In this document: one piece after another, positions 4,868-64,000 of the stretch | Layout of the letters: every line of letters begins with the position of its first letter | Numbering within the stretch: position 1 is the stretch's first letter | Origin: Botryllus schlosseri | Taxonomy: Eukaryota | Assembly (NCBI GenBank): GCA_051294905.1 | Contig: CM119371.1 | Span: forward strand, 24,554,001-24,618,000 | Reading direction: 5' to 3' | Length of the DNA: 64,000 nt | Program-made: the position numbers and the translations under genes | Notes under the pieces: model-generated | Seen by the model: the letters and a program-made list of their open reading frames with translations, nothing else | Databases searched by the model: none | What the model was told of the DNA's origin: nothing

Positions 4868-4894
4868 GATGTATCTCGTCGCAGAAAAAACTTT

Positions 4895-4945: not shown

Positions 4946-4947
4946 AT

Positions 4948-20137: not shown

Positions 20138-20186
20138 AGGTGCGTGTCGAAGTATTGTAAAACTGGCGCGTTGATCAAGGTTTGTT

Positions 20187-22401: not shown

Positions 22402-22482
22402 ATAGTTGGATAAGATGATAAATCTTTATGCCGAGCTAATGACAGATTTAGAGCTCGCGAGTTCAGTTATCTTCTGACACCA

Positions 22483-22658
22483 TGTTTCTTGCTGTACATT
22501 TATTATGGCTTCCATGTGCCATCAACCAGAGATGATATAAGAGATAAAGCGGTCAAGCACGAGTGATGCGGTCATGCACAGTTGGGTAAGGCATGACGTC
22601 ATACCTTGCTACTTTACAGGGAAGCATCATCATAATACATACAATAACCCACGTAACA
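22483..22658 (-). repeat. 5' LTR of Gypsy 2
   Basis: TG...CA; PBS adjacent. Confidence 0.95.
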
Positions 22659-23872: not shown

Positions 23873-24580
23873 CTTAGAGCATAGTCTGTCTTGGCCTGGA
23901 GATGTGTTTTTTCTAGGCTTGACTTGTCTTATACATCGAAATTAGAAAATTAGCTGGATGATAATGATTACCTTGGAATATGAGCTGTTTGATAACGATC
24001 CTTCACTGTTTAACCGCATACGCTTCCACCGTTAAATGCAACGTCGATTTGGTCGAAATTCCCTGATATTAGCTTGTATAGCAGCATCCTAAAATTGAAA
24101 AAATAACCATGAGGCTTAAACGTTTAGTTGACAATTTGGATTGGATTCGGAACGCCGAAGACATCCGAAACGTTTACTGATGTTGTATCCTTGACTTGCT
24201 TTATGCTTGCAAATAAGCGAGTTAAAATACAATTTAGCTACTCTCCTACGCATAATATATTACTCGCCAACAACATTTTTGATTTCACATTCACAGAGTA
24301 AGAGTCTGCCACTAATAGCAATCAGTCCTTGAATCTAACAAGAAGCAGATTTGTACATAGCCTATGACCAGGGGTCTTTAAATTGTACTTGAGTACAATT
24401 TAGCAAAAATAGCTTATTTTATACTCAACCACAATTTTAAATTATACTAAATTATACTCTTATGAAAAATGGCTTTCCTGGCGTAGGAGCGTACCATACT
24501 GAGACTTTCATGTGAAAACAAGCTCGTGTTATGCGTTACTCCACCTGCCGGTGTTTCAAGTTTAATGATCTAACCAAAAA

Positions 24581-25213: not shown

Positions 25214-25229
25214 TCTGACGTATTCTAAT

Positions 25230-40900: not shown

Positions 40901-40954
40901 AGTGCGAACATGAAGCGTATTGAATCTTTATTCCGTACGTAGTTTACGCAGTTG
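37914..40954. mobile_element. CAGTGGCGGCTC family, copy 2 (right end missing)
   Basis: Colinear with 28568-30260; interrupted at 39605-40821. Confidence 0.8.
39605..40821. mobile_element. hAT-type element with CTAGTGTT repeats
   Basis: TIR CAGTGGTGCCACTC / GAGTGGCAACACTG; TSD GTCCGAAC; empty site at 30138-30145. Confidence 0.9.
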
Positions 40955-42717
40955 CCTTTAGAGCGAAAATGAGAGGCCTAGAAGTTGTCCAGTCTATTGA
41001 TCCAATCGTACGCCGGGTGCCTCAGTAGTGAGGGTACCTGGATTATACGCAGGCCAATCAGAGAGCGCCACGTCATCCTAATTGCCACGCCCATTTTCAT
41101 ACCCTAAGGGTACATTCATCTGCTACGTCATCTGTGCCACATCATCAAGCGCCACGCTATAGTGCCACATCATCCATCCATTGCTATATCATCGCTGCAT
41201 TGATTGCCGCATCTTGATACTTTTCTCAGATATTGTATTATGTGTATTTAGGACTAATATCATCCGTCCATATTTTTTAAACTTGATTTTATGTGTATAA
41301 GTTACGGTTTCTGCAGTTTCCACATCTTACGACTCATGATTGCCGCGTCAAAACTTACCTTGGCTAGAATCGACAGATTTTCTATTATGTGTAAATTAAT
41401 TACTTAAATGCGACTTGATAATAATAATCCCTAGAATAATATAAAATGCGATTTTGAGTGCAGGCAGATCGCGGTTTCGATTTCCGAGGTCTCCACATTT
41501 TAAGCCTTATTATCAGCTCGCAGTACAACCGCTACCCGTATGATGTTTGCATGTCGAGTATAAGGGTATTTAACTCAGCACTAAAATGCCAACGGACTAG
41601 CCGCAGGGGTCCGGTTCTCGTCGCTATAATTAAACGAACACCTTCGCCGCAGGTACGCGATCCCCGACGTTATAATGATAGGACCAAATTAGCCGCATGA
41701 AAGCGAGTCTAATGAATATAACGGCAGACACCAAGTTAGTTGAAAAGTAAAACTAATCGTGACCGATGCAAGACGGCTTGAAACAGCGCTTTCGCTCGAT
41801 TCTTGTAGTGACCACATTTCATACGATTCAGTCCTTTTCGTGTCACTAGAATAAGGGTGATTAAACCGGCAGTATGAAACGCCGCCCGCGTCTTATAACG
41901 TAATAATGTAAGCTGCGCCGGGTGCCCGAATAGTCTTGTAGAATTTTCTAAAGTCGTAACAGCTTAGTAGCATATCCGCGAATCCCAAGGCAAAAATAAT
42001 CAAACGAACTATAGCCGCCGCCGTGCGAAGCTTCAGTAGCATATACGCAAATCCCAAGGCGAAAATAATCGAACGAAGTATAGCCGCAGGCGCGAGATTC
42101 GCCGGGCTCTAATTATACAAACACTATCTCTGCCTGTACGCGAACCGTAGCGTTATAACGACATGGTCTAATTAGCGCATTCTGAAGCCATAAATTTATT
42201 CAACTTCATTGAGATAGCCACGATTTAAAGATGGTAATCGAGTGAGACAATAGCACTCGTCAAGGTTATACAAACATAACCTTAAACTAATCTTTACTTC
42301 ATAACATATAAGGTTATAAAAGTAAGCAGATTTGTATGAAAGCACGCTACATAGAAGTGAAAGTAGTCTAGAAACATAACTACTTACTGAAAAATCGTTA
42401 CGTAGAAGTGTACTTGTATTGGAGCAGAATTGTGATCGATACATTAATGATTTTAATACTCTGTATTTTTAATTACCCACACCTATGAGTCGAAATGTTC
42501 TTAAGTAACTCATGTTTACAATATCACCTAAACGCAAAGTTCCAAAATTTCCATGTTGATCAAATACCACAAACTTTGCTTGCTTTCAGAGTAAGTAACA
42601 AAGCGCATAACAGATTTCACCTAAATAAGTCGGTACTCCGAAAATTTTGTTAATTTTGACCACTATGTTTTGATGATAACTTGCTTCCGAGAAATAAATA
42701 ACATTCATTATACGTTA

Positions 42718-44508
42718 GATGATACTTTTCCTTGATATTCTATTTTGTGTATTTAGGGCTAATTCGACATCACTATGTGGCGACAGGCCTGATTTGAACA
42801 CACTAATTTTGCGAATTAAACTTATCGCCCAACACGGACACTCAATGAAGAGCACCCTGGAGACATACATAAATGCTCCACAATTCTTGACATATATTAT
42901 AATGAGCATATAATAAGCTGACAAAACCTATACTTGAGTACTCCGAAATGTACAAGTACTTAACCTTTACACGACGTTTTTGTAAAATGAATACTAATTT
43001 TAATGAAAAATAAAAATTATGTACTCAAGTAGGTTTTTGTCTACACGCACCAACTACTCAAGTGTTTATGACACAGGAATGATTCATTAAGTATAGCGCA
43101 AGCAGGCCAAACCTATACTTGAGTCCTCCAAAATGTACAAGTACTTCGCTATGTACTCCCTCCACGTAAAAAGTGACTAGGTTTTAGACTACTTTATCGA
43201 TCTTCGATGTTGCGCAAATACCACAAACTTTGCTTGCTTTCAGAGCTGGCAACTAAATGCAAGACATACTTTACGCAAAAGTCTCTATTCTGAAAATTTT
43301 ATCAAGTTAATACTTTAAAAAGTTTTACTTGAGCACTACGGAATGTACAAGTACTTTACCTTTACAGGACGTGTTTTGTAAAATGAATACTAATTTTATT
43401 GAAAAAATAAAAAATAAATAAGGGCGAAAAATTACATTTTATCCCGGAACGCAACAAGATAAATCGTATGAATTTGTAAACTACTTATTCACGACATAAT
43501 AATTCTACTTGTATACTTTTTCATATTTTGTAACAATTTTAGTATTACTTAAATAAAATACGGAAAATATACTAATAGAAAAATTCGGTAACCAATTTCG
43601 CAATGATGATACTTTTCCTTGATATTCTATTATGTGTATTTAGAGCTAATGCGTCATCACTATGTTGGCGACAGGCCTGATTTGAACACACTAATTTTGC
43701 GAATTAAACTTATCGCCCAACACGGACACTCAATGAAGAGCACCCTGGAGACCCACATAAATGCTCCACAATTCTTGACATATAATATACTGAGCATATA
43801 ATAAGCTGACAAAACCTATAGTTGAGTACTCCGAAATGTACAAGTACTTTACCTTTGCACGACGTTTTTGTAAAATGAATACTAATTTTATCGAAAAATA
43901 AAAATTATGTACTCAAGTAGGTTTTTGTCTACACACACCAACTACTCAAGTGTTTATGACACAGGAATGATTTATTAAGTATAGCGAGAGCAGGCCAAAC
44001 GTATACTTGAGTACTCCAAAATGTACAAGTACTTCGCTATGTCTACTCCCTCCACGTACAAATTGAGTAGGTTTTAGACTACTTTATCGATTTTCGATGT
44101 TGCGCAAATACCACAAACTTTGCTTGCTTTCGGGGCTGGCAACTAAATGCAAGTCAGACTTTACGCAAAAGTCTCTATTCTGAAAATTTTATCAAGGTAA
44201 TAGTTTAAAAACTTATACTTGAGCACTACGAAATGTGCAAGTACTTTACCTTTACACGACGTTTTTTGTAAAATGAATACTAATTTTATTGAAACAATAA
44301 AACATAAAAAGAGCGTAAAATTACATTTTATCCCGGAACGCAACAAGAAAAATCGTATGAATTCGTAAACTACTTATTCATGACATAATAATAATTCTAC
44401 TTGTACACTTTTTCACATTTTATAACACTTTAAGTAGTACTTAACAGTTTCAGTTTTAAATAAAATACGGAATATTAATATATAAGAAAAATTAGGTAAC
44501 CAATTTCG
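42718..44508. repeat. ~890-bp tandem duplication within the arm (mirror ~60626-62416)
   Basis: cgacaggcctgatttgaacac at 42781 and 43669. Confidence 0.9.
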
Positions 44509-44650
44509 CGTAGACTATGCATACAAATGAGGAAAGCTACATCAACGCGTGTTAACTAGTAGTATCGAGTTATCGAATGATTTTTTCCTTGCATCAAAAC
44601 AACTAGAATGTGTAACTACATTAAAAACGTATCTAAATGAGCTCCGGGGC

Positions 44651-46200
44651 ATTGTGATTATGCACCATATCAAATTTCATCACACATTTCATGATGGAAC
44701 AACTTTAAAACTAACGCAGTTCTATAGCAACTTTTGCCTAAATCTGTTTTCGGTAGCGTCTGCACATACATAGTCTGCTTTAATAACAGAATTACCATGG
44801 TAATATGTGACTCCTCACGTTGAAACTTGGTACGTAGTTGTAGGACATTGTGATTATGCAGCATACCAAATTTCCTCGCGCATTTCATAATGAAGCAACT
44901 TTAAAACTAACGCAGCTCTACATCGACTTTTTGCGTACATCTGTTTTGCGGGAGCGTATAGCACGTACCTATACATAGTCAACTTTAATAACGGAATTAC
45001 CATGCTTAACATTGAATCCCAACTCTAAACTTGATACGTAGATGTAGGACATTATGGCAATGCACCATGCTAAATTTAATCACACATCTAATGATGGAAC
45101 ACCTTCAAAACTAACGCAGTCGATTACCGACTTTTACGCATATCTGTTTTGCGTGAACATAGCATATACCTATACATAGTCAATTTTAATAACAGATTTA
45201 CTGTGTTAAACATTGAATTCCTACCTTTATAGCTGGTACGCGGTTATAGGACATACCAAATCCAAATCCACCATACCACATCCCATCACACATTTCATGA
45301 TGGAACAACTTTAAAACGAACGCGGCTCTACATCGACTTTTTGCGTACATCTGTTTTGCGGGAGCGTATAGCACGTACCCATACATAGCCAACTATAATA
45401 ACGGAATTACCATGCTTAACATTGAATCCCAACTCTAAACTTGATACGTAGTTGTAGGACATTATGGTAATGCACCATGCTAAATTTCATCATACATCTA
45501 ATGATGGAACACCTTTGAAACTATCGCAGTCGAATACCGACTTTTACGCATATCTATTTTTCGTGAACATAGCATATACCCATACACAGTCAATTTTAAT
45601 AACAGAATTAGCATGCTAAACATTAAATTCTCACCTTGAACGTTGGTACGCAGTTGTAGGACATAATAACAATGGACCATACCAAATTTCGTCAGATATT
45701 TCATGATGTAACACCTTTAAAACCAACGCAGTTCTATACAGACTTTTGGCTAAATCTGTTTTTCCGTAGCGTAGCACGTACCTATACATAGTGAACTTTA
45801 ATAACGGAATTACCATGTTAATAATCGACTCCCCACCTTGAAACTCGCTACGCAGTTGTAAGACATTATGACAATGCACCATGTCAAATTTTGTTACGCA
45901 TTTCATGATTGAACAACTTTAAAACTAACGCAGTTCCATACCGACTTTCGCAGGAGCGTAGCACGTACCTATGCATACTCAACTTTAATAACGGAATTAC
46001 CGAGCTAAACATTGAATGCGCAACTTGAAGATTGGTTCACGGGTGTAAGACATTATGACAATGGAACATATCAAATTTCATCACACATTTCATGATGAAA
46101 CACCTTTAAAACTAACGCAGTTCTATACCAACTTCGCGTGAATCTGTTTGCGGGAGCGTAGCACGTACCTATGCGTGATCAACTTTAGTGATGGAATTAC
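44651..46200. repeat. ~200-bp diverged tandem array, ~7-8 units
   Basis: Recurrent aaatttcatcacacatttcatgatggaacaactttaaaactaacgcag at ~200-bp spacing. Confidence 0.9.
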
Positions 46201-46755
46201 AGATGTAATTAAGTTTCAACACTTTTACAATGATTCGTCTTGCTTCCTATAACATTCCACTTGATGCCCTCGTTATTAGGCTGCAATCTCAGGCTGGGCT
46301 ATGTCTTGAAGCCTACGGGACTCTGCAAATTGTTTCGATTTATTCTGTCCGTTTCAATTTAAGATAAGGAAGCCCATTTCACTCAATGTATCGATGCCTA
46401 CGGTACTCTACAAAATTTTCTGATTAATTCTCCCTATGCTTATTTATCATAAAAAAGATGATTTGACACCTAAGGTACGAAATACTTCTTCGCTTGAGCT
46501 AAGCCGCAGCGCTTGGAGTGGAATTTTACGGGGTATGTAGACTCATTTCGTAGGGCTCTATGCCATAGGAGCATAGTTTACGCTCCAATTCGATTCCCAC
46601 ACATTCCATATAATTACTAACAGAACCATTGAGTACCAGCCTTGACATTTTCCGTAGTACTAGATGGGATGTATACAATTTCATGACATCCGACAGTACG
46701 ACGGAGACTATAAAAATATCGAAAGAAGCCCTCTATTCTTTTCTGAAATAATCAA

Positions 46756-46881
46756 GGTTTTATCAGGACTTCCCTTCATATAAACTCCTGCAGAATCACT
46801 AATAACCTCTCAAGTTTAGGTTTTATCAGGACTTGCCTTCATATAAACTCCAGCAGAATCACTAATAACCTCTTAAGTTTA
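46756..46881. repeat. ~63-bp tandem duplication (mirror ~58253-58378)
   Basis: ggttttatcaggactt...aataacctct twice. Confidence 0.85.
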
Positions 46882-48319
46882 CTCACCTCGTTTAATCTGA
46901 TACTCGTGTACCAAATCCCTATTTTCCGCAAGTATGATAGAGGCTATCGCTCGACACTCAACGATTCGTAATTTTGCTGGAATACAAGTACAATTAGGGT
47001 TGAAAAGTAACTGATATAGGTGGTTATGTTTGTAGGATATTTACACTTCTACTTACCGCTTTTTCATGAGAAACTACCTACTTTTAGGACTTTATATTTC
47101 AAAGTAGTTTGAGGTTACGTTTGAATCACCTTGATAAGTGCTATTATCAAAAACTGCTTCTGCTAAACTCTTACACTTTCACTGAACTTCAACACTGAAT
47201 CTTGTAAAGTAGATAGAAAAGGAACACTATTAACATAAGGTAAGTGAGAAGCACGCAAATTTCGATTGCATACAAACAAACTGCGCTAACTTTCAGAGTT
47301 GTTAAGTATAGAAGTACTCGTACTTCTTGAGAATACTCAAGTAGGTTTTTTGCCTACATGCACCACATAGTCTCAAGTCCTTATGATATTGGAGTACATC
47401 AACTTCATGATAGCTAGAGTATTAAACAGTAATAGACCTAGAGTACTAACGTTTTACTTACTCGGAAATGACTACTTCTACCTTATTTTAAAGGGTACCT
47501 CGTTCGAAGCGAAAATGTATGTGGTTTTGGATAACATCCAAGATGTAGGCTCACTTTGACGGTTACTTCATAAAACTCAAATATTGCGCAGTGAGAGTTC
47601 GCAAATTCTCGAAGTATTTTTGTTATTTTTATTGCGATAAGTCATTCTGCAGCGCGAAAATGCGTCGTTGGATATAGATGAAACTAGCACCACTCATCAA
47701 GACCGCTGAAAACAGTACGTTTCAACATTTAGTAGCAGTAAATTTCTAGTAAAGTACAAGACGTGATGATTTCCGACTGAGTTAAAAAGTAAGTATTGCA
47801 GGCAGACATGGGGTGATTACTTCATGAATGTAATCGATTGCGATTACGATTACTTCAGAATCACGCGATTACGATTACGATTACGATTACAGCAAAATCA
47901 GGAAGTAGTCGATTACGATTACGATTACATTGGAAAAGTAATCACGATTACTCACGATTACATTTGTTTTACTTGTATTAGGACTATAATCTTAAAGGAT
48001 ATATTGGAAGACAATACAAGGATTGCGATGAAAGGGCTTAGTGAAATATCAACACTCTTCATACATCATGCGTCATTTGCTTATTACGTCATAGTATACC
48101 AATTTCCCAACTTTATTGAGATGATTTATCGCACCCAACGATTTGCATTATCGCCAGGTCTTTACCTGCCACACCCCAAATTCCTTAATAGGGTGGGGAG
48201 CGTGCTCGAAGGGGACTCAAAAGTATTTCGTAAACCAACAGAAATTATAGAGCATTTTCGAGAATTTAATTAATTCTTGAAAATGTTCTTCGAGCTTCGC
48301 GATTCAAATGTCTGTAGTA

Positions 48320-48806
48320 CAGGGGTCACCAACGCGGACCAAATGAGTCGCCCGCGGTCGCTGCAGCAAATATTCAAATGAAAGATTTGAAAGTAGAAGC
48401 TGGTTTCATATGAGCATGAGCAGCAGTTGAACATGGGTCGGCCGACCCCAAGGAACATACGAACGCAGTCGTTCAGGGCATTGCTCGTCTTCGCCCACGC
48501 GGCGGCTCAACGGGAATCTATAGTTAATATTTCCGAGTTCCGACGCGGAGATTAGTGCTTTGGCGCGCACTGCAGCAACGCAACTGAGCTCGGAGGAGCT
48601 GGTGTGAGTCCCGGCGAGTGAGTGTTTTTTGTTCTTGGTAAGGGGCGGAAACCCGGACCAGTGCTTTGATTGTCTTACTCTAAGTGATGAAATCCAACTA
48701 GCACGGATGAACGGCGGGATTAAGTGGTAACCCTTCGGTCGTCGCAATAATCAGTACACACTACACAAGAAGTAGTTTTTTGTTTCAATACGGTTGGTGA
48801 CCCATG
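48320..48806. mobile_element. Nested hAT MITE carrying a 28S rRNA fragment
   Basis: TIR CAGGGGTCACCAAC / GTTGGTGACCCATG; flanks CTGTAGTA/CTCCAGTA. Confidence 0.78.
48365..48644 (+). pseudogene. Degenerate 28S rRNA fragment
   Basis: AGCAAATATTCAAA, CAGCAGTTGAACATGGGTC, GGGAATC...GTTAATATT, AACGCAACTGAGCTCGGAG match conserved LSU blocks in the right order. Confidence 0.82.
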
Positions 48807-49605
48807 CTCCAGTAGATAACTGGGCTTGAAATGCATACCTCTCCCCCTCAAGAAAAAACATGCATAGGCTATTTTATGGGAACAGACATTTCGGAGCCGG
48901 TCATTACCGCGTCACGATCCCACAACACACCAAAAGACATATGCAGTTTCAGCCAACACGCAACTTCACGGGATGTGATACCAAAGAAATACCTTGGCCC
49001 AAACTTAGGGTATTCGTCCATTGTCAATAGCCGCGCTGGGTGGGCGTGACTAATAATAGTGCTGTCTTTCTAATCTGAGCCCACAATGCAAATGCCACCC
49101 GGCGCATCCACATAGGAATAAAGCAATGACAATTTACGTGTGCGTCTCACGAAAGATATTCTTTTAGTCTGCTACGTTTGGGCGAGTACAATATCTTTTG
49201 ATTAATCAACAGACTGGAGGTCACGAATTAACAACATACAATAAAGTAATTATAACAACATACCAGATGCTATAAATATGAATTACGTGCCCCAGCTCTA
49301 CTGGTAAATCTGACACTCGAGGCTGAGAGAGGTTAAAAATGAATAGTAATCTAATGCAATGACCAATATTATTGACGAAATTCAGTTTTGAAAATTGACC
49401 AACGGTTGGACTGGGGGACGAATTGCTGTTGGTTCTGATTCTAGCTACAACCCACGCTAACATGTCAGGCTATATAAGGGGATGGTTATGGCGGCAGGTC
49501 CAAATGCTGAGCAACGAACTGTGAAATAACGATTGGTGCCCGTTTCAAGTAGCCATATGAGAATAAGATATAGTGAACATAATAATTCTGCCTTCAACTT
49601 AATAC

Positions 49606-50122
49606 TAGGGCTGGGCACAATGATTCGAGTACTCGAATCTGAATCGAGTATTAATTTTGATGATTCGAGTCGAGTAGTAAAAGATGATTTTTTCGAGTAC
49701 TGAAATTTCGCGCTTCTAGCCGCTGGAAGTTAATTTGCCCCTGAGAATTATACTTCCGATACTAATTTTCATTGTTGAAGCAGTGGAACCTTGATTGAGG
49801 GTATCGCAGCATACGAAACATATAGTACAAACACACGAAGGTTACTGGACGTAGCACATTTCCGAAATCATGAAAATCTCACAACATTGTCACCAAGTGG
49901 AATGAAATCGATATGGTCCGAAAAATACCAAAGTATGATTTATGAGTTGGATAACAGGCATTATACTCTTTGTGGTGGCATAAACGGTACATATCTGAAC
50001 TTAGACGTATTACACTATGTTATGACGTCATAATTGTTGGTACTCGATTACTCGACTCGACTCGAAGCATCTTTCGTGATTCAGAATCGAATCACTCAGG
50101 TACTCGATTTTGCCCAGCCCTA
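49606..50122. mobile_element. hAT MITE with CTCGA/TCGAG repeats
   Basis: TIR TAGGGCTGGGCA; TSD CTTAATAC; empty site in copy A at 25934-25941. Confidence 0.92.
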
Positions 50123-53100
50123 CTTAATACAGATACTGCGAGCTGCTGTTACGAGAAACGGCTAAGCACGGCTCGGTTATGATATATATCAGCAGCTGTT
50201 TATTTGTAATGCTTCGTTGTGGTAACTGCAATGTGTTATTCGACGAGTACAAAATTCCGAAATTTTGTCAGGTGTACGACTGTACGTGCCTACGTAGGCC
50301 TACTGCTCGCCGAGCAGCAACGTTGAAACTGCGTTTAACTAAGCACGATCAAACATCAATACATAAGTTACTATTTGAAACTATAGGCAGAGTGGTGATC
50401 AATATCCTGCTGCGAGGTAGGGGCTTCTGTAGTGTATTGATAACCTGATATACACCACGGGGGGTGTTCATACAATCACAATACAATGTCCATCGCATGT
50501 CTGTTTACTATGTGTGGATACTTCTTACGCAATGACGAGCGGAGCTAATACTTCTGACGTAATAATGAGTATAGTTGCGTTTGAAAATCAGACGTTTGTG
50601 CTATCGCTAACGTGATATATTATCTCATTCTTGTTCACGAATATTCAGTTTATGTCATAGTCCTTGTACAAACAAAAAGTAATCGTTCTTTAACAAAGAA
50701 ATCGATTAAATATGGGAAGTAGTCGATTACGATTACGATTACTTCGGATTTTTTTCGAATGTAATCGATTGCGATTACGATTACTTCAAAACGCTGTAAT
50801 CGTCGTAATCGATTACGATTACTAATCGCGATTACCCCATGTCTGATTGCAGGTATAGTTTACCTGAAAACCGAATACTCTGAAATAGAAGTAGCTGCAG
50901 TGTAAATAGTTAATCACTTGATTAAGTTTAGTGCAAGCAGATAAAACCTATACTTGAGCAGTACAAAATGCACGAGTACTTCGCTATCGCCTCCCTCCAC
51001 GTAATAAGTGACTACGGTTTAAGACTGCTTTTACCGATACTCGTCGGTTTCAGTTTTAGATAGAATTCGGAAACCACATAATTTCATAAACATAAGCTAA
51101 TTTAATGAATTTACTCGAATGTACTATGCCGCGCTGATAAGATTAATTATAATATACTTATCATGTTACAGCGATTTTTCTAGCGTGGAAAATCTTTAAA
51201 ATGTAGTAAGCAGGCCAAATGAAGATATTCGTTGAGCTGAATAAACATAAAAAATACTCTAGACTACTTTATCGATACTTTACAGTTTCAGTTTTAGATA
51301 AATTTGTCCCTTTCACCTATAATTACAACTTCTCGCTATCTAAACATGTTTAGAATATATTATTTGCGATGATACGAACCCGTGAAGTACTCAAGTAGCT
51401 TTTCGTAGGATATAGATGAAACTGACAACACTCACCAAGACCGCTGGTCCACTGAAAAAAGTACATTGTAACAGTAAAGTCCTACTAAAGTACAAGAAGT
51501 AATGATTTCCCAGTTAGTTGAAAAGTAAGTATTGAGGTATAGTTTGCTCGAAAAAACGAAAAACTCTGAAATAGAAGTAGATGCAGTGTAAATAGGTAAT
51601 CACTTCATTAAGTATAGCGCAAGCAGGCCAAACCTATACTTGAGTACTGCAAAATGTACAAGTACTTCGCTATGTTCTCCCTCCACGTAAAAAGTGACTA
51701 GGTTTTAGACTACTTTATCGGTACTCGACAGTTTCAGTTTTAGATAAAATTTGGTAAGACTTTAAATTTTAAAGTAGTTTGAGCTTACGTTTGTATCACC
51801 TTGACAAGTAACATTATCAGACATGAAAATGATACTATCACCTAATATAGAAGTTAACACGCGTCAATGTGCTTCGGAATTCACGAGAAATTGCTAACTA
51901 AGAGAAGTATATTCTTGTATACACAATAGTGGAGAGAATCTTTAAAATGTAGTGAGCAGGCCGATGGGTATTCGTTCAGTTGTATAGGCATAAAAAACAT
52001 TCCCGCGCGCGCGCCTTAGTATTAGGTGGTAGGGTTAGGAAGTATTTTGTTTAAGAGCGCGCGGGAATGTTTTTTATGCCTATACAACTAAACGAATACC
52101 CATCGGCCTGCTCACTACATTTTAAAGATTCTCTCCACTATTGTGTATACAAGAATATACTTCTCTTAGTAAGCAATTTCTCGTGAATTCCGAAGCACAT
52201 TGACGCGTGTTAACTTCTATATTAGGTGATAGTATCATTTTCATGTCTGATAATGTTACTTGTCAAGGTGATACAAACGTAAGCTCAAACTACTTTAAAA
52301 TTTAAAGTCTTACCAAATTTTATCTAAAACTGAAACTGTCGAGTACCGATAAAGTAGTCTAAAACCTAGTCACTTTTTACGTGGAGGGAGAACATAGCGA
52401 AGTACTTGTACATTTTGCAGTACTCAAGTATAGGTTTGGCCTGCTTGCGCTATACTTAATGAAGTGATTACCTATTTACACTGCATCTACTTCTATTTCA
52501 GAGTTTTTCGTTTTTTCGAGCAAACTATACCTCAATACTTACTTTTCAACTAACTGGGAAATCATTACTTCTTGTACTTTAGTAGGACTTTACTGTTACA
52601 ATGTACTTTTTTCAGTGGACCAGCGGTCTTGGTGAGTGTTGTCAGTTTCATCTATATCCTACGAAAAGCTACTTGAGTACTTCACGGGTTCGTATCATCG
52701 CAAATAATATATTCTAAACATGTTTAGATAGCGAGAAGTTGTAATTATAGGTGAAAGGGACAAATTTATCTAAAACTGAAACTGTAAAGTATCGATAAAG
52801 TAGTCTAGAGCAGTGCTTTTCAACCTTTTTGAGCTTCATTCGCACTTTTTTTGTAAAATAAATTTCATTCGCACAAACTTACCGAATATTGAAAAACCAC
52901 CATTTATTTGCTCAGATGTGCAACAAATTGGCTACTATGTATCTTAAGCTATCAAGTGTCCCATTAAAAAGGCTACTATTTTTGCTCGTTTTGATTTCAA
53001 CTATTTCACTAAAACCCTTCTATACTAGTGCTTGGATGGCCAGGTCTCAAAGCAGGGGTCACCAACACAGCCGCGGGCCGCATGAGGCCTGTGAGGTCAT

Positions 53101-53928
53101 ATTTTGCGGCCCGTGATAAGATTTCAGAAGAACACCCGGTACTGAAATCTATTTCAGTTTGAAAATATTTTTGACGTTGTTCAAAATATGCTATTCTCCT
53201 GTGCCGAACACCACTATATTCTTCGCCAGCTGATACGGCCTTGGTGATGGTATAATAACATTCCATGGAGGAACAATTAGCTGATATAAATGGGCAATTA
53301 GCATATTGCCTTGGCGCACAATTGTTGTGACACCGTCAAGACCGAAACAATTAGAAAACGACTCAGGGCCTCGCCACAATAGCAATCTTCACGGGAAGAT
53401 AGTTTACCAGCCAACACCGTGTCTAGCTAACACCAATATCGATTTGTGGTTGAAAATGTGGTCAGCGGTATCGTGCACAGATCATAGTTCAAAATCGAAT
53501 GAAAGTGATGATCAAGATATTTTTGTTGCTTTTGTATTAGTTATAAAATATGTTTTTCGATATCCCATTTACTGTCTCGCGAGTATGTGGGAAGAGCAAA
53601 TATACTCATGATACTGTGTGTTTTGCTCTTTAGCTCAATCTAAGTTGATAATTTCATGAGAGTTTACTAACGTTAAAGCAGCTTTTTAGACTACCACCAA
53701 AATCTGAGATTTTGTGGCATCCCGCGACCCGAGCCTCACCCAAGAATAGGAATTCATTTTTTATAATAATAGTAGTATGCTATGATTTTATGGGCATGCA
53801 TAACACACAGAACGCGCACACCACATTTCTATCCAACACAGCTCTACAGGTCTGACACACGCGATTTCAAATTGGGGTGAATTAAATTCATTTTCGTGTC
53901 GCAGTTGTAGGCCTACTACTGTCTATAC

Positions 53929-54279
53929 CAGTGGTTTCCAACCTTTTTCGACCCATCGCCCTCTTTTCAAGCTCAACACCGATCATCGCCCCCCAAATTT
54001 TGTGTACCGAAAATTGGGCATACAAACTGTAATCACCGGCGGGTTGACTAAAAAAAGGACAACTTTACGGCTCACAGCCTTAATTTGACACTTTTGTAAC
54101 TAAATTTCCGTGGGTTGACTAAAAAATAATAATAAAAACAAGGTCAGCTGATTTGACGCGTCATCGCCCCCCTATCGCCGCCCCCGTCGCCCCCTTTGTC
54201 CATTTTCGCCCTCCTATCGCCTCCTTCGTCAATTGCGCCCCCCCCTAGGACGCCAAATCGCCCACGTTGGGAACCACTG
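53929..54279. mobile_element. Nested hAT MITE with ATCGCCC repeats
   Basis: CAGTGGTTTCCAAC / GTTGGGAACCACTG; TSD GTCTATAC. Confidence 0.9.
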
Positions 54280-55091
54280 GTCTATACACAGATTGCAAGT
54301 ACGGGACTATGCCGTGCCGACAATGGAGCATAGCCATTTCGAATGGTTTGTCCATCCAGTATCGGTCAGTTTTGGCCAAGGTTTTGTTGACGCTTATTCT
54401 ATGGCACCGCATTTTATCCGCCGTTTGTTAGCCAAAACTTTCCGTCTTCATGTGGCTGGACAGTAGGACACAGAAGGGGTTGGCCTCAAAATGAATGAGT
54501 ATCATAGACCTGAAGTCGCTCGTTGCACATACCTAGTCCATAAAGTAGTTCATGCCAACGGTTTTCGGCCATGTTTTCCAGAAAAAACAATCGGACAAAT
54601 CTTATCACGAATTCTCATGATAAAGACATATTTTCCGCGTGTCTCGCTTATTCGTTCCAGTACCCAACACCGTGACCTTAGATTTGTAAACACGAGCGCA
54701 GAATTTTGCCATAAATTGAACAAATATTACATACATATTAACAGACACGACAGTTCTGTTACCGTGTCGACCCAAAATTATACAGTTTGCGGTTTATACT
54801 TTAAAACCCTTGAAAGGTATAATTTGCGTTACAGTAACTTGCATATGGGAGTCTGAAATGATGGTATTTACTACTATCCTTGTGCCTCGCACTAATCGAA
54901 TAGTTATTACGGAAGTATGATGATCATTTAGCGAAAGTAAGCAGAAAGTCAATTTAACGTCATTTCCCAGCCTATTGCATGCTCAGACGGGCTGATATAC
55001 TGTATGTCTGCCACTACACCAGCTTCCAAACCAGACTTTTGGTTACATAATAATTATAGTGCGAAAATATTAATTGACTACGGCTTGTGAG

Positions 55092-56604
55092 CAATGTTCC
55101 CTCTAATTTTTCAAGAGTCTGCGCATACACGCCAACTCACTGCGCAGGCCCTCGGACAACAGTGCGCAACCGCCATCCAATAGGGTGATAAAACTAACTA
55201 TAGTGGGGGGCTTCGCCCCCAGACCCCCCTACGGCTAATAGGCTTCTTCCAGTACATATCATGTACATAGGGTGCCCATTTAGTAGTAGCGTCACTAAAC
55301 GCGCGAAGCGCGAAAAATTTCTATAATTCATGATTGCACCGGCCAATATGATCGGGAATTGCATATATATTGCTATCAATTTTTATCCTCTCCCTGCTCA
55401 CATAATCAGATTTACCGGTAGAGCTGATCCAGTGAGGTGTGTTGGAATAGATAGGCCCTGTAAATAATAATAATACATCTTCGGGCGTACCCGTTCATAT
55501 AATGACTTCGTTACGTAATGCTATTTCGTGACCCCCTATCTGCTATGTCAAAAGATATTGAAATCGCCAAAACGTACTAAAGTAAAAGACGTATACGATT
55601 TCAAATTGGTATTTCTTAACTGGAAAATAATGTTCCCTCGATATGGCATTTGTCTTGTTGTGGGACACGGATCGCAAGGACAGGAAAATTCGGCGCCAGC
55701 CATTTAGGCGCCCATGGACATGGACAATTACACATATATTTGTAGATATCGAAGTTTTCGGTCAGCACGGGGGCAGTCTTTTTCGCCCAAGGTGTTCTCG
55801 CTGCTGATCGTTCTGGCGCACTTATTGGATTCGCATGTTACGTAGCCTTTAACTTCATATGTCTTGCCGCGTCATGGTGCGGTAATGGCCGACGACCAAC
55901 TGCCCATTTCTATAAATCATGCCTAATTTTTGTTCGGAAAGGGTACCAAATAATCAGATATCTTACAGCAATAAACCGCGCGTAGCGTGAAAATCCTGAA
56001 AAATTTCAAAAAATACACCATGATTTATGTTAATCCTCGAAATAATTTTGGACCCCTTTCGAGCTCGGCCCCTCCAATTGGGGGGTTTGGGTGCGAAAGT
56101 TACGGTTCTGAGTAAATCTTACGCAATGTTCATGCCACGCGAAGAAGACTATCATTCGTTAGTTTCTCGTAGATTAGCTTCGAGCTAGCCCATTGCTATT
56201 TATAACTTTGGTAAACCATGTTATTTCGCCATTCCCAGAAAATAATGCGCTATTGAAATGATATCAGTATCGCTCACGTGTACGAGGCCATACTAAAAAA
56301 ATATCTTCCGTGAGGCGCAGGTGATTGTGAACTCTAATTTCTTCACGGAGCGCAATAGTTACCTTTGCGGGGTGCACCTGTACCTCGGTTTCAGACTTCC
56401 GTGATAACACTATTTGGGCCTGGCAATGTTCCATCTCAATTTTCACGAATCTGCGCGCCTGCGTGGTCCATTGGACAACAATGCGCAACAACTTTAAAAA
56501 AAAACATCACTTCTGATTTTTTGTGCGCAGCGTAGATTGTCTGTGCGCAGAGACCCTTTCAGCACTGCGCATTTGCGCACGTACGCAGCTTAGAGGGAAC
56601 ATTG
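55092..56604. mobile_element. Nested hAT element with TGCGCA repeats
   Basis: TIR CAATGTTCCCTCTAA; TSD CTTGTGAG. Confidence 0.92.
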
Positions 56605-58933
56605 CTTGTGAGAGCTACGACTAGTGGTGCGTCGTAAGTTCAACAAGATTTTACAATTGCGTCGCAACAACAAAAGTTACACTGCCCTTGAGTTTCCTAT
56701 TAGGTTTATTTGAATTATTCCAGGTCAGAAAAATTAACAATTATTATTCACTATTTTCATTCGCACCTATCCGGGATTTTCATTCGCACCGTTCGCACAA
56801 CCTTCGTCATTCGCACTCATCCGGGATTTTCATTCGCACCGTTCGCACCATGTTCGTCATTCGCACTGCAATTTTTTTCATTCGCACAAGTGCGAACCGT
56901 CACACAGGTTGAAAAGCACTGGTCTAGAGTATTTTTTATGTTTATTCAGCTCAACGAATATCTTCATTTGGCCTGCTTACTACATTTTAAAGATTTTCCA
57001 CGCTAGAAAAATCGCTGTAACATGATAAGTATATTATAATTAATCTTATCAGCGCGGCATAGTACATTCGAGTAAATTCATTAAATTAGCTTATGTTTAT
57101 GAAATTATGTGGTTTCCGAATTCTATCTAAAACTGAAACCGACGAGTATCGGTAAAAGCAGTCTTAAACCGTAGTCACTTATTACGTGGAGGGAGGCGAT
57201 AGCGAAGTACTCGTGCATTTTGTACTGCTCAAGTATAGGTTTATCTGCTTGCACTAAACTTAATCAAGTGATTAACTATTTACACTGCAGCTACTTCTAT
57301 TTCAGAGTATTCGGTTTTCAGGTAAACTATACCTGCAATACTTACTTTTTAACTCAGTCGGAAATCATCACGTCTTGTACTTTACTAGAAATTTACTGCT
57401 ACTAAATGTTGAAACGTACTGTTTTCAGCGGTCTTGATGAGTGGTGCTAGTTTCATCTATATCCAACGACGCATTTTCGCGCTGCAGAATGACTTATCGC
57501 AATAAAAATAACAAAAATACTTCGAGAATTTGCGAACTCTCACTGCGCAATATTTGAGTTTTATGAAGTAACCGTCAAAGTGAGCCTACATCTTGGATGT
57601 TATCCAAAACCACATACATTTTCGCTTCGAACGAGGTACCCTTTAAAATAAGGTAGAAGTAGTCATTTCCGAGTAAGTAAAACGTTAGTACTCTAGGTCT
57701 ATTACTGTTTAATACTCTAGCTATCATGAAGTTGATGTACTCCAATATCATAAGGACTTGAGACTATGTGGTGCATGTAGGCAAAAAACCTACTTGAGTA
57801 TTCTCAAGAAGTACGAGTACTTCTATACTTAACAACTCTGAAAGTTAGCGCAGTTTGTTTGTATGCAATCGAAATTTGCGTGCTTCTCACTTACCTTATG
57901 TTAATAGTGTTCCTTTTCTATCTACTTTACAAGATTCAGTGTTGAAGTTCAGTGAAAGTGTAAGAGTTTAGCAGAAGCAGTTTTTGATAATAGCACTTAT
58001 CAAGGTGATTCAAACGTAACCTCAAACTACTTTGAAATATAAAGTCCTAAAAGTAGGTAGTTTCTCATGAAAAAGCGGTAAGTAGAAGTGTAAATATCCT
58101 ACAAACATAACCACCTATATCAGTTACTTTTCAACCCTAATTGTACTTGTATTCCAGCAAAATTACGAATCGTTGAGTGTCGAGCGATAGCCTCTATCAT
58201 ACTTGCGGAAAATAGGGATTTGGTACACGAGTATCAGATTAAACGAGGTGAGTAAACTTAAGAGGTTATTAGTGATTCTGCTGGAGTTTATATGAAGGCA
58301 AGTCCTGATAAAACCTAAACTTGAGAGGTTATTAGTGATTCTGCAGGAGTTTATATGAAGGGAAGTCCTGATAAAACCTTGATTATTTCAGAAAAGAATA
58401 GAGGGCTTCTTTCGATATTTTTATAGTCTCCGTCGTACTGTCGGATGTCATGAAATTGTATACATCCCATCTAGTACTACGGAAAATGTCAAGGCTGGTA
58501 CTCAATGGTTCTGTTAGTAATTATATGGAATGTGTGGGAATCGAATTGGAGCGTAAACTATGCTCCTATGGCATAGAGCCCTACGAAATGAGTCTACATA
58601 CCCCGTAAAATTCCACTCCAAGCGCTGCGGCTTAGCTCAAGCGAAGAAGTATTTCGTACCTTAGGTGTCAAATCATCTTTTTTATGATAAATAAGCATAG
58701 GGAGAATTAATCAGAAAATTTTGTAGAGTACCGTAGGCATCGATACATTGAGTGAAATGGGCTTCCTTATCTTAAATTGAAACGGACAGAATAAATCGAA
58801 ACAATTTGCAGAGTCCCGTAGGCTTCAAGACATAGCCCAGCCTGAGATTGCAGCCTAATAACGAGGGCATCAAGTGGAATGTTATAGGAAGCAAGACGAA
58901 TCATTGTAAAAGTGTTGAAACTTAATTACATCT

Positions 58934-60483
58934 GTAATTCCATCACTAAAGTTGATCACGCATAGGTACGTGCTACGCTCCCGCAAACAGATTCACGCGA
59001 AGTTGGTATAGAACTGCGTTAGTTTTAAAGGTGTTTCATCATGAAATGTGTGATGAAATTTGATATGTTCCATTGTCATAATGTCTTACACCCGTGAACC
59101 AATCTTCAAGTTGCGCATTCAATGTTTAGCTCGGTAATTCCGTTATTAAAGTTGAGTATGCATAGGTACGTGCTACGCTCCTGCGAAAGTCGGTATGGAA
59201 CTGCGTTAGTTTTAAAGTTGTTCAATCATGAAATGCGTAACAAAATTTGACATGGTGCATTGTCATAATGTCTTACAACTGCGTAGCGAGTTTCAAGGTG
59301 GGGAGTCGATTATTAACATGGTAATTCCGTTATTAAAGTTCACTATGTATAGGTACGTGCTACGCTACGGAAAAACAGATTTAGCCAAAAGTCTGTATAG
59401 AACTGCGTTGGTTTTAAAGGTGTTACATCATGAAATATCTGACGAAATTTGGTATGGTCCATTGTTATTATGTCCTACAACTGCGTACCAACGTTCAAGG
59501 TGAGAATTTAATGTTTAGCATGCTAATTCTGTTATTAAAATTGACTGTGTATGGGTATATGCTATGTTCACGAAAAATAGATATGCGTAAAAGTCGGTAT
59601 TCGACTGCGATAGTTTCAAAGGTGTTCCATCATTAGATGTATGATGAAATTTAGCATGGTGCATTACCATAATGTCCTACAACTACGTATCAAGTTTAGA
59701 GTTGGGATTCAATGTTAAGCATGGTAATTCCGTTATTATAGTTGGCTATGTATGGGTACGTGCTATACGCTCCCGCAAAACAGATGTACGCAAAAAGTCG
59801 ATGTAGAGCCGCGTTCGTTTTAAAGTTGTTCCATCATGAAATGTGTGATGGGATGTGGTATGGTGGATTTGGATTTGGTATGTCCTATAACCGCGTACCA
59901 GCTATAAAGGTAGGAATTCAATGTTTAACACAGTAAATCTGTTATTAAAATTGACTATGTATAGGTATATGCTATGTTCACGCAAAACAGATATGCGTAA
60001 AAGTCGGTAATCGACTGCGTTAGTTTTAAAGGTGTTCCATCATTAGATGTGTGATTAAATTTAGCATGGTGCATTGCCATAATGTCCTACATCTACGTAT
60101 CAAGTTTAGAGTTGGGATTCAATGTTAAGCATGGTAATTCCGTTATTAAAGTTGACTATGTATAGGTACGTGCTATACGCTCCCGCAAAACAGATGTACG
60201 CAAAAAGTCGATGTAGAGCTGCGTTAGTTTTAAAGTTGCTTCATTATGAAATGCGCGAGGAAATTTGGTATGCTGCATAATCACAATGTCCTACAACTAC
60301 GTACCAAGTTTCAACGTGAGGAGTCACATATTACCATGGTAATTCTGTTATTAAAGCAGACTATGTATGTGCAGACGCTACCGAAAACAGATTTAGGCAA
60401 AAGTTGCTATAGAACTGCGTTAGTTTTAAAGTTGTTCCATCATGAAATGTGTGATGAAATTTGATATGGTGCATAATCACAAT
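58934..60483. repeat. Mirror copy of the ~200-bp array
   Basis: Reverse complement of 44651-46200. Confidence 0.9.
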
Positions 60484-62421
60484 GCCCCGGAGCTCATTTA
60501 GATACGTTTTTAATGTAGTTACACATTCTAGTTGTTTTGATGCAAGGAAAAAATCATTCGATAACTCGATACTACTAGTTAACACGCGTTGATGTAGCTT
60601 TCCTCATTTGTATGCATAGTCTACGCGAAATTGGTTACCTAATTTTTCTTATATATTAATATTCCGTATTTTATTTAAAACTGAAACTGTTAAGTACTAC
60701 TTAAAGTGTTATAAAATGTGAAAAAGTGTACAAGTAGAATTATTATTATGTCATGAATAAGTAGTTTACGAATTCATACGATTTTTCTTGTTGCGTTCCG
60801 GGATAAAATGTAATTTTACGCTCTTTTTATGTTTTATTGTTTCAATAAAATTAGTATTCATTTTACAAAAAACGTCGTGTAAAGGTAAAGTACTTGCACA
60901 TTTCGTAGTGCTCAAGTATAAGTTTTTAAACTATTACCTTGATAAAATTTTCAGAATAGAGACTTTTGCGTAAAGTCTGACTTGCATTTAGTTGCCAGCC
61001 CCGAAAGCAAGCAAAGTTTGTGGTATTTGCGCAACATCGAAAATCGATAAAGTAGTCTAAAACCTACTCAATTTGTACGTGGAGGGAGTAGACATAGCGA
61101 AGTACTTGTACATTTTGGAGTACTCAAGTATACGTTTGGCCTGCTCTCGCTATACTTAATAAATCATTCCTGTGTCATAAACACTTGAGTAGTTGGTGTG
61201 TGTAGACAAAAACCTACTTGAGTACATAATTTTTATTTTTCGATAAAATTAGTATTCATTTTACAAAAACGTCGTGCAAAGGTAAAGTACTTGTACATTT
61301 CGGAGTACTCAACTATAGGTTTTGTCAGCTTATTATATGCTCAGTATATTATATGTCAAGAATTGTGGAGCATTTATGTGGGTCTCCAGGGTGCTCTTCA
61401 TTGAGTGTCCGTGTTGGGCGATAAGTTTAATTCGCAAAATTAGTGTGTTCAAATCAGGCCTGTCGCCAACATAGTGATGACGCATTAGCTCTAAATACAC
61501 ATAATAGAATATCAAGGAAAAGTATCATCATTGCGAAATTGGTTACCGAATTTTTCTATTAGTATATTTTCCGTATTTTATTTAAGTAATACTAAAATTG
61601 TTACAAAATATGAAAAAGTATACAAGTAGAATTATTATGTCGTGAATAAGTAGTTTACAAATTCATACGATTTATCTTGTTGCGTTCCGGGATAAAATGT
61701 AATTTTTCGCCCTTATTTATTTTTTATTTTTTCAATAAAATTAGTATTCATTTTACAAAACACGTCCTGTAAAGGTAAAGTACTTGTACATTCCGTAGTG
61801 CTCAAGTAAAACTTTTTAAAGTATTAACTTGATAAAATTTTCAGAATAGAGACTTTTGCGTAAAGTATGTCTTGCATTTAGTTGCCAGCTCTGAAAGCAA
61901 GCAAAGTTTGTGGTATTTGCGCAACATCGAAGATCGATAAAGTAGTCTAAAACCTAGTCACTTTTTACGTGGAGGGAGTACATAGCGAAGTACTTGTACA
62001 TTTTGGAGGACTCAAGTATAGGTTTGGCCTGCTTGCGCTATACTTAATGAATCATTCCTGTGTCATAAACACTTGAGTAGTTGGTGCGTGTAGACAAAAA
62101 CCTACTTGAGTACATAATTTTTATTTTTCAATAAAATTAGTATTCATTTTACAAAAACGTCGTGTAAAGGTTAAGTACTTGTACATTTCGGAGTACTCAA
62201 GTATAGGTTTTGTCAGCTTATTATATGCTCATTATAATATATGTCAAGAATTGTGGAGCATTTATGTATGTCTCCAGGGTGCTCTTCATTGAGTGTCCGT
62301 GTTGGGCGATAACTTTAATTCGCAAAATTAGTGTGTTCAAATCAGGCCTGTCGCCACATAGTGATGTCGAATTAGCCCTAAATACACAAAATAGAATATC
62401 AAGGAAAAGTATCATCTAACG

Positions 62422-64000
62422 CAGTGCTTTTCAACCTTTTTGAGCTTCATTCGCACTTTTTTTGTAAAATAAATTTCATTCGCACAAACTAACCGAATAT
62501 TGATATACAAAAAGAAGTTTAAAATACAACATTTATTTGCTCAGATGTGCAACAAATTGGCTACTATGTATCTTTAGCTTTCAAGTGTCTCATGAAAAAT
62601 TATACTTTTTTCGCTTGTTTTGATTTCAGCTATTTCACTTCAACCCTTATATACTAGTTAACTAGTGCTTGGATGGTCAGGTATTAAAGCAGGGGTCACC
62701 AACACTCGGCCCGCGGGTCGCATGAGGCCCGCGATGTCATATTTCGCGGCCCGGGATCTGTTTTCAGAAGAACGCCCAGTACTGAAATTCATGTCTGTTT
62801 AAAAATATTGTCGACGTTGTTCAAAATGTGCTATTCTCCCTTTAGAAACGCGAAACCCCCTTCTTAAACTTGAAACCCCCTCCTTTTGAAATGGCCCTTC
62901 AGGCCCTAATACTCGGTTGCAATTCACCAGGGCCGTAACAGCACCTCGTCAGGCCCTTAAAAAACTTTGGTCTTGGGCCCCCATAGGGTTATAGACCGAA
63001 CTTCTGCGAGGCTTCGCCCCCCAGACCCCCCTCCGGCGATACACTGTTTACCGCTATTTATCATATCCATTGGGAGTTTGTTTAGTGAATCAGCTCTTGT
63101 CGCCTAAGCGCGCGAAGCGCGGGAAATTTTTAGAATTCATGATTGAATCGGTCAGTATGATCGGGAATTGCATATATTGTTATCGGTTTTTATCTTCTCT
63201 CTGCTCACGTAATCAGATTTGCCGGTAGAGCTGAGTGAAGTGTCTTGAAAACGGGAGGGCCCGTAAATAATAATTAAACATCTTCGGGCGGGCGGACCCG
63301 TTGATATGACTTCGTTACATGATGTTATTTCGTGACTTCCAGTCTGCTATATCAACAAATATAGAATCGCCCAAACGTAGGCTTCTAAACTAAGAGACGC
63401 ACAATCGCATCTGCAATAGGCCTAGTATACGAAAGATATCGCTAGCCTAACTATACCGCGTCTTGGGCCTACCATACTTTGGCCGGGCTACGTAAGACGC
63501 ATTGGTCAGCGCGCGTATTTTATTGTTCGATGCCTTGATAAGCGCAGGTATTCAATTGTTCACGACAGATCAGGGAGTCGCTAATTAACAGCTCTTTCGG
63601 ACTCGTCGACAAGCTTATCATACGCGTATAATCGTCAACACGAGGATGTTGTATAATCGTTATTTACGTATCTACTTAACCCTAATGAATTGATGCTATA
63701 TTACCAGGGCCGTAACTGCCGCACCCCAAACCCAATTTATGCAATATTTTCAAAAATATTTCGCGCTAGGCGCAGTTTCAAGTCGCCAAATATCTTGATT
63801 ATTGGGTGCTCTTCCTCAAAGAAAAAATACGCAAGATTTATAGAAATGGGTATATCGGCGTTGGCCATTACCGCGGCACGAAGCACAAAGACATATAACG
63901 TTTTAGGCCATGAAACATGCGACTCCAAGAGGAAAAAATATATGCCAGTGAAGAAATACCAATCCGAAACCATGTGATCTTTCAGTCTAGTACGTTTGAG
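62422..64000. mobile_element. Second CAGTGCTTTTCAACC element (composite), runs off window end
   Basis: First ~70 bp identical to 52811, then diverged; inserted after ATCTAACG where arm symmetry stops. Confidence 0.85.

Follow-up and report, generated by a model that had tools for sequence, protein, structure and literature searches.

We analysed a 64,000-nt stretch of the Botryllus schlosseri genome (GenBank assembly GCA_051294905.1, contig CM119371.1, positions 24,554,001 to 24,618,000 of the forward strand), hereafter the window, to which 10 kb of sequence were added on the left and 20 kb on the right, numbering above 64000 being a continuation of the window coordinates. The locus holds a giant near-perfect palindrome, which a preliminary description made from the letters of the window had placed at 42713-62421. 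Its mirror segments in that range were reproduced by a repeat finder, self-BLAST and global alignment, and the first two methods paired 42713-47802 with the reverse complement of 57332-62421 (5,090 nt, 3 mismatches), 50944-51264 with 56922-57242 and, across a 46-nt spacer, 51257-52010 with 52057-52810. A mirror match of such length is far above chance. The preliminary description ended the symmetry at 42713/62421 while allowing that the arms might be longer, and they are: the symmetry picks up again past an insert starting at 62422, 41024-42712 being the reverse complement of 66747-65059 (1,689 nt, 2 mismatches). The left arm runs from 41024 to 52010 and the right arm from 52057 to 66747, 2.7 kb beyond the window. 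Their outer boundaries are sharp, and the flanks outside are unrelated to each other.

The palindromic block 41024-66747 measures 25,724 bp, or 15,917 bp after subtraction of later inserts. These inserts have target-site duplications (TSDs) on either side and are private to one arm, as had been described, but there are three of them (one left, two right) instead of one per arm. Once they were excised, the arms measured 7,936 and 7,935 bp and their global alignment contained 7 substitutions and one 1-nt indel. Two of the substitutions fall in the outer section that extends the arms past the earlier range, and the other five, together with the indel, are the differences listed previously (42821, 43003, 45106, 51896, given there as ~51897, and 51977, with the indel at 50943), a list that proved complete for its range.

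The search past the window for arm ends and a TSD gave ends at 41024 and 66747 with TGCCTC outside each. The element reads AGTAGTGAGGG... inward, the same from either end, and overall AGTAGT...ACTACT. Public contigs aligned on 40701-60700 revealed the corresponding empty site. A contig with the same organism label, coming from another sample and study, tracks the left flank to 41023 and then continues with CGCTTTGGTTGCCTATTATCACCTGGTC, as does one contig from a second organism label; CGCTTTGGTTGCCTATTATCACCTGGTC is the right flank from 66754 on, directly after the right-hand TGCCTC. With just one TGCCTC, these contigs represent the unoccupied site, and the 25.7-kb block in its entirety is an unfixed insertion.

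The second organism was also represented by contigs that match the arms at 97-100%, including one 205-nt piece (52136-52340) with zero differences, yet its site at this locus is empty. The palindrome family is therefore common to, or has recently been exchanged among, close relatives.

All three nested inserts have CAG... inverted termini, 8-bp TSDs and non-mirrored positions (Table 1). The hAT superfamily has an 8-bp TSD. Because of their 8-bp TSDs and CAG... tips, set against the 6-bp TSD of the palindrome, the inserts are hAT-like and the palindrome is not hAT. The window copy inserted recently and the three hAT-like elements landed afterwards. A sister copy elsewhere (L002) has neither the left-arm insert nor the first right-arm insert (R1). 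Two non-autonomous hAT-like families are involved, with terminal inverted repeats (TIRs) CAGACATGGGG and CAGTGCTTTTCAACC, and they are also seen at 25227-27830, a relative of the left-arm insert, and at 10789-11380. Both families were active recently enough for three strikes on a polymorphic insertion.

Table 1. Features of the palindromic element and its inserts (positions above 64000 lie beyond the window)
Feature	Position	Strand	Remarks
TSD, left copy, TGCCTC	41018..41023		right copy 66748-66753, beyond window; one TGCCTC in empty-site contigs
Terminal hexamer AGTAGT, invariant	41024..41029	+	found at 43/43 ends
Hypervariable terminal block, 24 bp	41030..41053	+	near-unique per copy, same at both ends of a copy; terminus layout AGTAGT-N24-CCAATCAG
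Conserved subterminal region	41054..41400	+	starts CCAATCAGAGAGCGCCACGTCATC; 95-100% in 40 places; 190 exact pattern matches versus 0 in control
Left arm, outer 6,779 bp	41024..47802		repeat finder, BLAST, alignment
Two direct repeats of ~0.9 kb	42718-44509		92% alike; in left outer arm
Tandem array, 7.7 units of 202 bp	44660-46200		in left outer arm
Left-arm-only insert, non-autonomous, hAT-like	47803..50845		8-bp TSD ATTGCAGG at 47795-47802 and 50846-50853; TIR CAGACATGGGG
Left arm, inner 1,157 bp	50854..52010		
Central spacer, 46 bp	52011..52056	+	non-palindromic; (CG)n on both sides
Right arm, inner 754 bp	52057..52810		
Insert R1, right arm only, hAT-like	52811..56921		8-bp TSD GTCTAGAG at 52803-52810 and 56922-56929; TIR CAGTGCTTTTCAACC
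Right arm, middle 5,492 bp	56930..62421		
Insert R2, right arm, hAT-like	62422..65050		window part 62422..64000; 8-bp TSD ATCTAACG; TIR family as R1
Right arm, last 1,689 bp	65059-66747		outside window

The dispersed family and its terminal blocks

Genome-wide searches with the arm end and the centre returned many palindromic sister copies. For the central 501 bp, 40 of 819 candidates were scored, and all 40 places were 97-100% identical on their better strand; for the terminal 377 bp, 40 of 921 candidates were scored, giving 40 places at 95-100%, mainly as +/- pairs 12-17 kb apart. The terminal pattern AGTAGT-N20-28-CCAATCAGAGAGCGCCACGTCATC gave 94 forward and 96 reverse exact matches, compared with 0 + 0 for the reversed control. 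Among the 100 matches listed there are 38 +/- terminus pairs with a spacing of 7.0-25.7 kb (median ~15.5 kb), most sizes falling between 12 and 18 kb. The chromosomes carry roughly a hundred sister elements, with a typical length of ~15.5 kb. One of them, at C1:23406948-23422040 and 1.19 Mb off, matches the cleaned window copy collinearly at 98.7% and contains none of the three inserts.

We inspected the flanks of 45 terminus pairs, comprising the window copy, four earlier copies, ten pairs from the terminal-377-bp list and 30 of the 32 remaining pattern-listed pairs (two C7 pairs were left out); these pairs were chosen non-randomly from match lists, and the copy counts are lower bounds. A perfect 6-bp TSD was present in 37 of the 45 pairs, the match never reaching 7 bp, and 4 further pairs had a 6-bp TSD with one mismatch. 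The 37 duplicated hexamers have no consensus. By its structure (arms making up all but 46 bp, 190 termini, the TSDs and an empty site), the family is a foldback-type transposon. This was one of the options raised in the preliminary description, and the defined termini, 6-bp TSD, precise empty site and ~100 sister copies bear it out.

From the tip inward, each arm consists of AGTAGT, the 24-bp variable block, a subterminal region of ~340 bp, the ~0.9-kb direct repeats, the 202-bp tandem units and ~3 kb of unique sequence. Four ACRTCATC repeats on the same strand at 41070-41174, i.e. 4 of the window's 8 sites within 105 nt (4.6 expected over 64 kb), are putative transposase-binding sites. The spacer was conserved in 19 of 19 centres inspected, the length of the bracketing (CG)n differing among copies, and it carries degenerate telomere-like hexamers of the TTAGGG type (TTAGTA TTAGGT GGTAGGG TTAGGA). 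The cleaned element contains no open frame of at least 110 aa, none of the 47 stop-to-stop frames of at least 45 aa in one arm matched a Pfam family above cut-off (best E-values 0.015-0.055), and Rfam gave 0 matches over 40000-64000.

Sister copies vary by whole modules. A 2.5-kb segment in the copy at C8:8.07 Mb stands in for 1.2 kb of the window arm, and does so in both arms. The copies at C3:15.16 Mb and L048 are central-deletion derivatives with an asymmetric middle; L048, a non-coding copy of 7.0 kb, carries a 904-bp single-copy module, in which a recurring 149-aa open frame has neither a start codon nor a Pfam match. Another non-coding copy, of 20.2 kb (L109/L110), has a 4.4-kb insert in one arm.

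The block behind the terminal hexamer can be called a barcode of each copy. In 43 elements, bases 7-30 took 42 different forms, which differed pairwise by 0.525 on average; the chimeric copy at C1:23.4 Mb and an element with an indel of 1 nt were not counted. Bases 1-6 were invariant, and bases 31-60 differed by 0.016, a value that is partly built in, as the search pattern prescribed bases 31-54 in 30 of these 43 elements. Two results show the contrast independently of that pattern, namely the ten pairs from the BLAST list of the terminal 377 bp, which behave in the same way, and the arm comparison given below. Within an element the 60-nt ends were identical in 37 of 45 pairs. When the window arm was compared with the C1:23.4 Mb arm, 111 of 7,936 columns differed, 13 of them in bases 6-29 and 21 at arm positions 1287-1310.

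The blocks look mosaic, with short cassettes (bases 7-13, 14-20, 21-24 and 25-30) occurring in many combinations around an invariant T21 and C27, and mutual information was high for neighbouring block columns only. No base-pair covariation was detected within the block, and no second copy of the block inside its own element (5 elements, up to 6 mismatches). A few blocks are common to two or three elements at separate loci, such as C3:22368025 with C13:24817999 and C2:37884274 with C1:10991819, and because of this recurrence the blocks are heritable but quickly turned over. We know of no described mechanism for such a per-copy terminal block.

A few family members begin with AGTAGTAGT and not AGTAGT, e.g. 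at C5:2024722 and C7:13138585, and the number of trinucleotide repeats at the tip thus varies. Protein-primed replicons use short terminal repeats in slide-back initiation, in regard to which the variable repeat number is a lead only.

Arm evolution and transposition

To compare the history of the two arms, the inner 1,600 bp of each window arm was aligned with sister copies, and differences were counted as mirrored, present in one arm of the other copy, or present in one arm of the window copy. The five informative comparisons gave 29/0/2, 30/2/2, 190/0/2, 163/2/2 and 42/1/2, respectively, so that nearly all between-copy differences are present in both arms. The copy at C3:15.16 Mb, in which one arm is truncated, was left out, and that at C1:23.4 Mb gave 7 mirrored versus 6 one-arm-only differences. 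Arm divergence inside TSD-bearing copies is 0.1-0.7%, and divergence between copies 1.3-10%. Because between-copy differences are mirrored, the arms do not appear to be independent and are probably regenerated from, or corrected against, each other.

Taken together, we put a probability of roughly 0.85 on the reading that 41024-66747 is one insertion of a non-coding, non-autonomous and wholly palindromic DNA transposon of the foldback type, probably mobilised in trans. An enzyme supplied in trans, either a transposase or an integrase, would recognise the AGTAGT tip and the subterminal ACRTCATC repeats and cut the target with a 6-bp stagger. As for the identity of the arms, the mechanism that we prefer, at about even odds, is that one strand, or one arm, serves as the source of each new copy. 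The strand would fold back at the centre and be completed or corrected against itself before integration, the copy being born a perfect palindrome; the arm difference of 0.1% and the one-arm inserts would then represent the time elapsed since insertion. Patchy mismatch repair in the hairpin after recombination between copies might, speculatively, leave mosaic blocks that are the same at both ends. A model in which a transposon loops out single-stranded on a stem of its inverted repeats has been described for Polintons (available excerpt of PMC4046053).

Several observations weigh against the transposon reading and the proposed mechanism. A perfect TSD is absent from 8 of the 45 pairs. At 5 of the 7 other loci inspected a 100-N scaffold gap lies at or inside the element (C5:26384264-26384363, C5:21064207-21064306, C13:14016366-14016465, C11:23477112-23477211 and C8:8071544-8071643). 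The C1:23.4 Mb copy has arms 96-99% alike, unlike ends and no TSD. The ~12 copies inspected whole or in part yielded neither a gene for a transposase nor an autonomous element ending in AGTAGT, no genome-wide transposase-profile screen having been run. Among the short public contigs aligned on 40701-60700, no read or contig bridged the centre and both private inserts. Finally, the re-templating step is a proposal with about an equal chance of being wrong, and arm conversion in place would equally mirror point differences.

Because the C1:23.4 Mb copy lacks a TSD and its ends differ, it is read as a recombinant of two elements. The copies with two centres (C5:26.37 Mb, C5:21.05 Mb, C13:14.0 Mb and C11:23.47 Mb) were considered as nested palindromes, an explanation that was rejected when a 100-N gap was found exactly at each junction; these double centres are read as overlapping contig ends, the same centre having been assembled twice. 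At C8:8.07 Mb the 100-N gap lies at the element edge.

Alternatives and wider meaning

The strongest alternative concerns the mechanism step only. Gene conversion between the arms in place could keep them alike, transposition being an ordinary double-stranded cut-and-paste or copy-and-paste, and we regard this as possible but clearly less probable than regeneration from one strand or arm. Besides the mirrored point differences, it would account for an arm divergence that varies by copy, from 0.1% to ~0.7% and up to 4% in the C1:23.4 Mb copy, as if conversion competed with mutation. However, the arms are identical up to the last base of the 24-bp block, outside which just 6 bp of homology are left, a zone that conversion tracts should seldom enter; segments replaced on a kilobase scale are mirrored as well; and all nested inserts seen (three in the window and one in C1:40.1 Mb) are still in one arm after insertion. 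These three features, together with the fact that a perfect palindrome is bound to snap back when it is copied or excised single-stranded, are our reasons for favouring regeneration from a strand or an arm. The C1:23.4 Mb copy, which is unhomogenised, also speaks against conversion in place.

A more far-reaching formulation is that the family represents, at the superfamily level, a new kind of gene-less DNA transposon, i.e. a self-templating hairpin with one-arm snap-back, a tip barcode written on both ends and an integrase borrowed perhaps from a non-resident Polinton-like virus or transposon. In such a self-templating element the hairpin intermediate might give rise to the barcode, by template switching or by repair in patches. 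We consider this formulation tentative, its chances being well short of even.

Less likely again is that the element is a non-autonomous Polinton/Maverick derivative or a user of that type of integrase, which would be compatible with a foldback-type transposon mobilised in trans and would name its helper. The 6-bp TSD in 37 of 45 pairs, the sizes of 12-18 kb, to be compared with a Polinton length of 13-25 kb (available excerpt of PMC10748475), and the existence of the single-strand stem-forming model (PMC4046053, likewise in excerpt) fit this possibility, under which the AG...CT tips, the long inverted repeats and the repeated AGT at the terminus would also reflect Polinton machinery. On the other side, none of the copies inspected contains a Polinton gene; the protein-primed polymerase B (PF03175) and adenain-type protease (PF00770) profiles each gave 0 matches genome-wide, which is a weak test whose blank does not show absence, and no genome-wide integrase search was made. 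The terminal motif was matched neither in viral_contigs nor in metagenome_contigs (0 each). Short subterminal repeats are more typical of cut-and-paste transposons, which also counts against a Polinton helper.

Very improbable is a group of readings nearly all of which the preliminary description had entertained: a source of hairpin RNA or small RNA maintained by the host, a locus with a structural role, or a remnant of fold-back or breakage-fusion repair. A transcript across the element would form a perfect long hairpin, and promoter-like boxes (CCAAT, CACGTCA and GC-box) were noticed by eye at its ends, but the element is multi-copy, TSD-flanked and polymorphic as an insertion. The hairpin-RNA and structural options drew no support from Rfam or, in a weak test, from one single-cell RNA run, in which the arms had 0 to 2.7 reads per 667-bp bin and the nested inserts up to 21 (~3% of the run, from which no conclusion on expression is drawn); for the central stretch, no RNA data set was listed as containing it. 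A repair relic would be single-copy and without TSD, with the symmetry continuing into the flanks, and because the empty site identifies the block as an insertion, both such a relic and a head-to-head mis-join of two alleles are excluded.

An assembly artefact, be it a chimeric read that folds back or a head-to-head joining of two haplotypes, has next to no probability: the assembler does struggle with this family, leaving duplicated centres beside 100-N gaps at 4 loci and an edge gap at a fifth, and no spanning read was present among the aligned short contigs, but no N occurs in the window or in the 30 kb added to it, the flanks are unrelated and bear the 6-bp TSD, dozens of gap-free sister palindromes have TSDs of their own, and a mirrored chimeric read is excluded because of the three one-arm inserts, which have their own 8-bp TSDs at non-mirrored sites, and the eight arm differences.

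The transposon explanation reduces the earlier mystery of the locus, and what is distinctive is the size and perfection of the palindrome, the mirrored evolution of its arms and the terminal barcode. Few known DNA structures are as unstable as a long perfect palindrome with a short spacer, yet this genome tolerates about 100 palindromes of 16 kb and continues to produce new ones. The family is a natural system in which to ask how giant hairpin-forming DNA is replicated and tolerated, and a test case for single-strand or snap-back models of transposition, which have so far just been proposed for large inverted-repeat elements. The per-copy terminal block is a built-in lineage marker that could trace parent and daughter copies, and the 6-bp TSD and AG tips may point to an integrase-type helper enzyme. 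The family also gives a warning, as this assembly is interrupted, or has sequence in duplicate, where such elements lie, which creates gaps and false 'double' structures.

Other repeats were observed elsewhere in the window. Two small inverted-repeat structures, at 33262-33877 (257-nt arms, 94% alike, 102-nt spacer) and 16087-17308 (~510-nt arms, 79% alike, with ~200 nt between), may be small foldback elements or elements resembling miniature inverted-repeat transposable elements, of other families. Broken retrotransposon frames with RVT_1, RNase H, integrase zinc-binding and rve domains occupy the minus strand at 592-5921 and 18406-23941, and a perfect 176-bp direct repeat is present at 18157-18332 and 22483-22658.

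Comparison with known systems

A keyword search of the open-access subset did not bring up any account of a wholly palindromic 16-kb family with a 6-bp TSD or of a per-copy terminal barcode, which is not proof of absence. The nearest structural counterparts are Drosophila FB, which has a 9-bp TSD, and the Mutator-related Tm1 of root-knot nematodes. Like the present family, both are class II elements built mostly or entirely of long inverted repeats. They too have tandem repeats inside, numerous copies without coding capacity and arms that vary in length. The TSD of Tm1 is 9 bp, its repeats average 93% identity and are identical in 5 of 61 cases, and a 9-bp (8-10 bp) TSD is the criterion of the FB/Tm1 group (available excerpt of PMC3169594). 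In contrast, the present family has a 6-bp TSD, mostly unique 7.9-kb arms that are 99.9% alike and AGTAGT tips. Autonomous FB/Tm1 members carry a MULE-type transposase, and among ~12 copies of the present family no coding copy and no related transposase was found. Membership of the FB/Tm1 group was rejected on the TSD, the longest flank match being exactly 6 bp in 37 of 37 positive pairs.

Galileo, of the P superfamily in Drosophila, shares with the present family long, internally repetitive inverted repeats and structural dynamism. Its first copies were found as repeats only, and its chimeric copies with non-matching duplications are comparable to the C1:23.4 Mb copy described here; it has a 7-bp TSD and repeats of 18-1,250 bp (available excerpt of PMC3573991). 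The arms of the present element are six times as long as the longest of Galileo, and the same excerpt describes no per-copy terminal block. With a TSD of 6 bp, and not the 7-8 bp of the P superfamily, the family was not assigned to Galileo.

A 6-bp TSD is found in several other groups. IS3EU/GingerRoot elements combine it with TA..TA and sometimes TG..CA tips (available excerpt of PMC10045372), and Ginger2 with TGTNR tips and an AT-rich RTATAY target (available excerpt of PMC2836005). The present family differs from them in its AGTAGT tips and in having no target consensus over 37 TSDs, and IS3EU/GingerRoot was rejected as its home on account of the AG..CT tips. For Polintons, the TSD is given as 6 bp (excerpt of PMC10045372) or 5-8 bp, the latter with inverted repeats of 100-1,500 bp (excerpt of PMC10748475).

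The present family resembles Polinton/Maverick elements in its 6-bp TSD, a size of the order of 13-25 kb and long terminal inverted repeats. Polintons are said, in work by Kapitonov and Jurka from 2006, to end in 5'-AG; the AG tips at 43 of 43 ends fit this rule, by which Polinton alone among the groups with a 6-bp TSD agrees with the tips. However, genes for an integrase and a protein-primed polymerase are part of the definition of Polintons, whereas no protein family was found in the present element, whose arms are 5 to 80 times longer than Polinton repeats, and membership by genes was rejected for the copies inspected. The family is not filed under Polinton, a Polinton enzyme being an unlikely candidate for its helper.

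Finally, the palindromes of primate sex chromosomes also have arms of kilobase scale or longer with >99.9% identity, which are kept alike by gene conversion. Those palindromes are single-locus, immobile and gene-bearing, with long spacers, whereas the palindrome described here belongs to a dispersed mobile family whose arms are separated by 46 bp.

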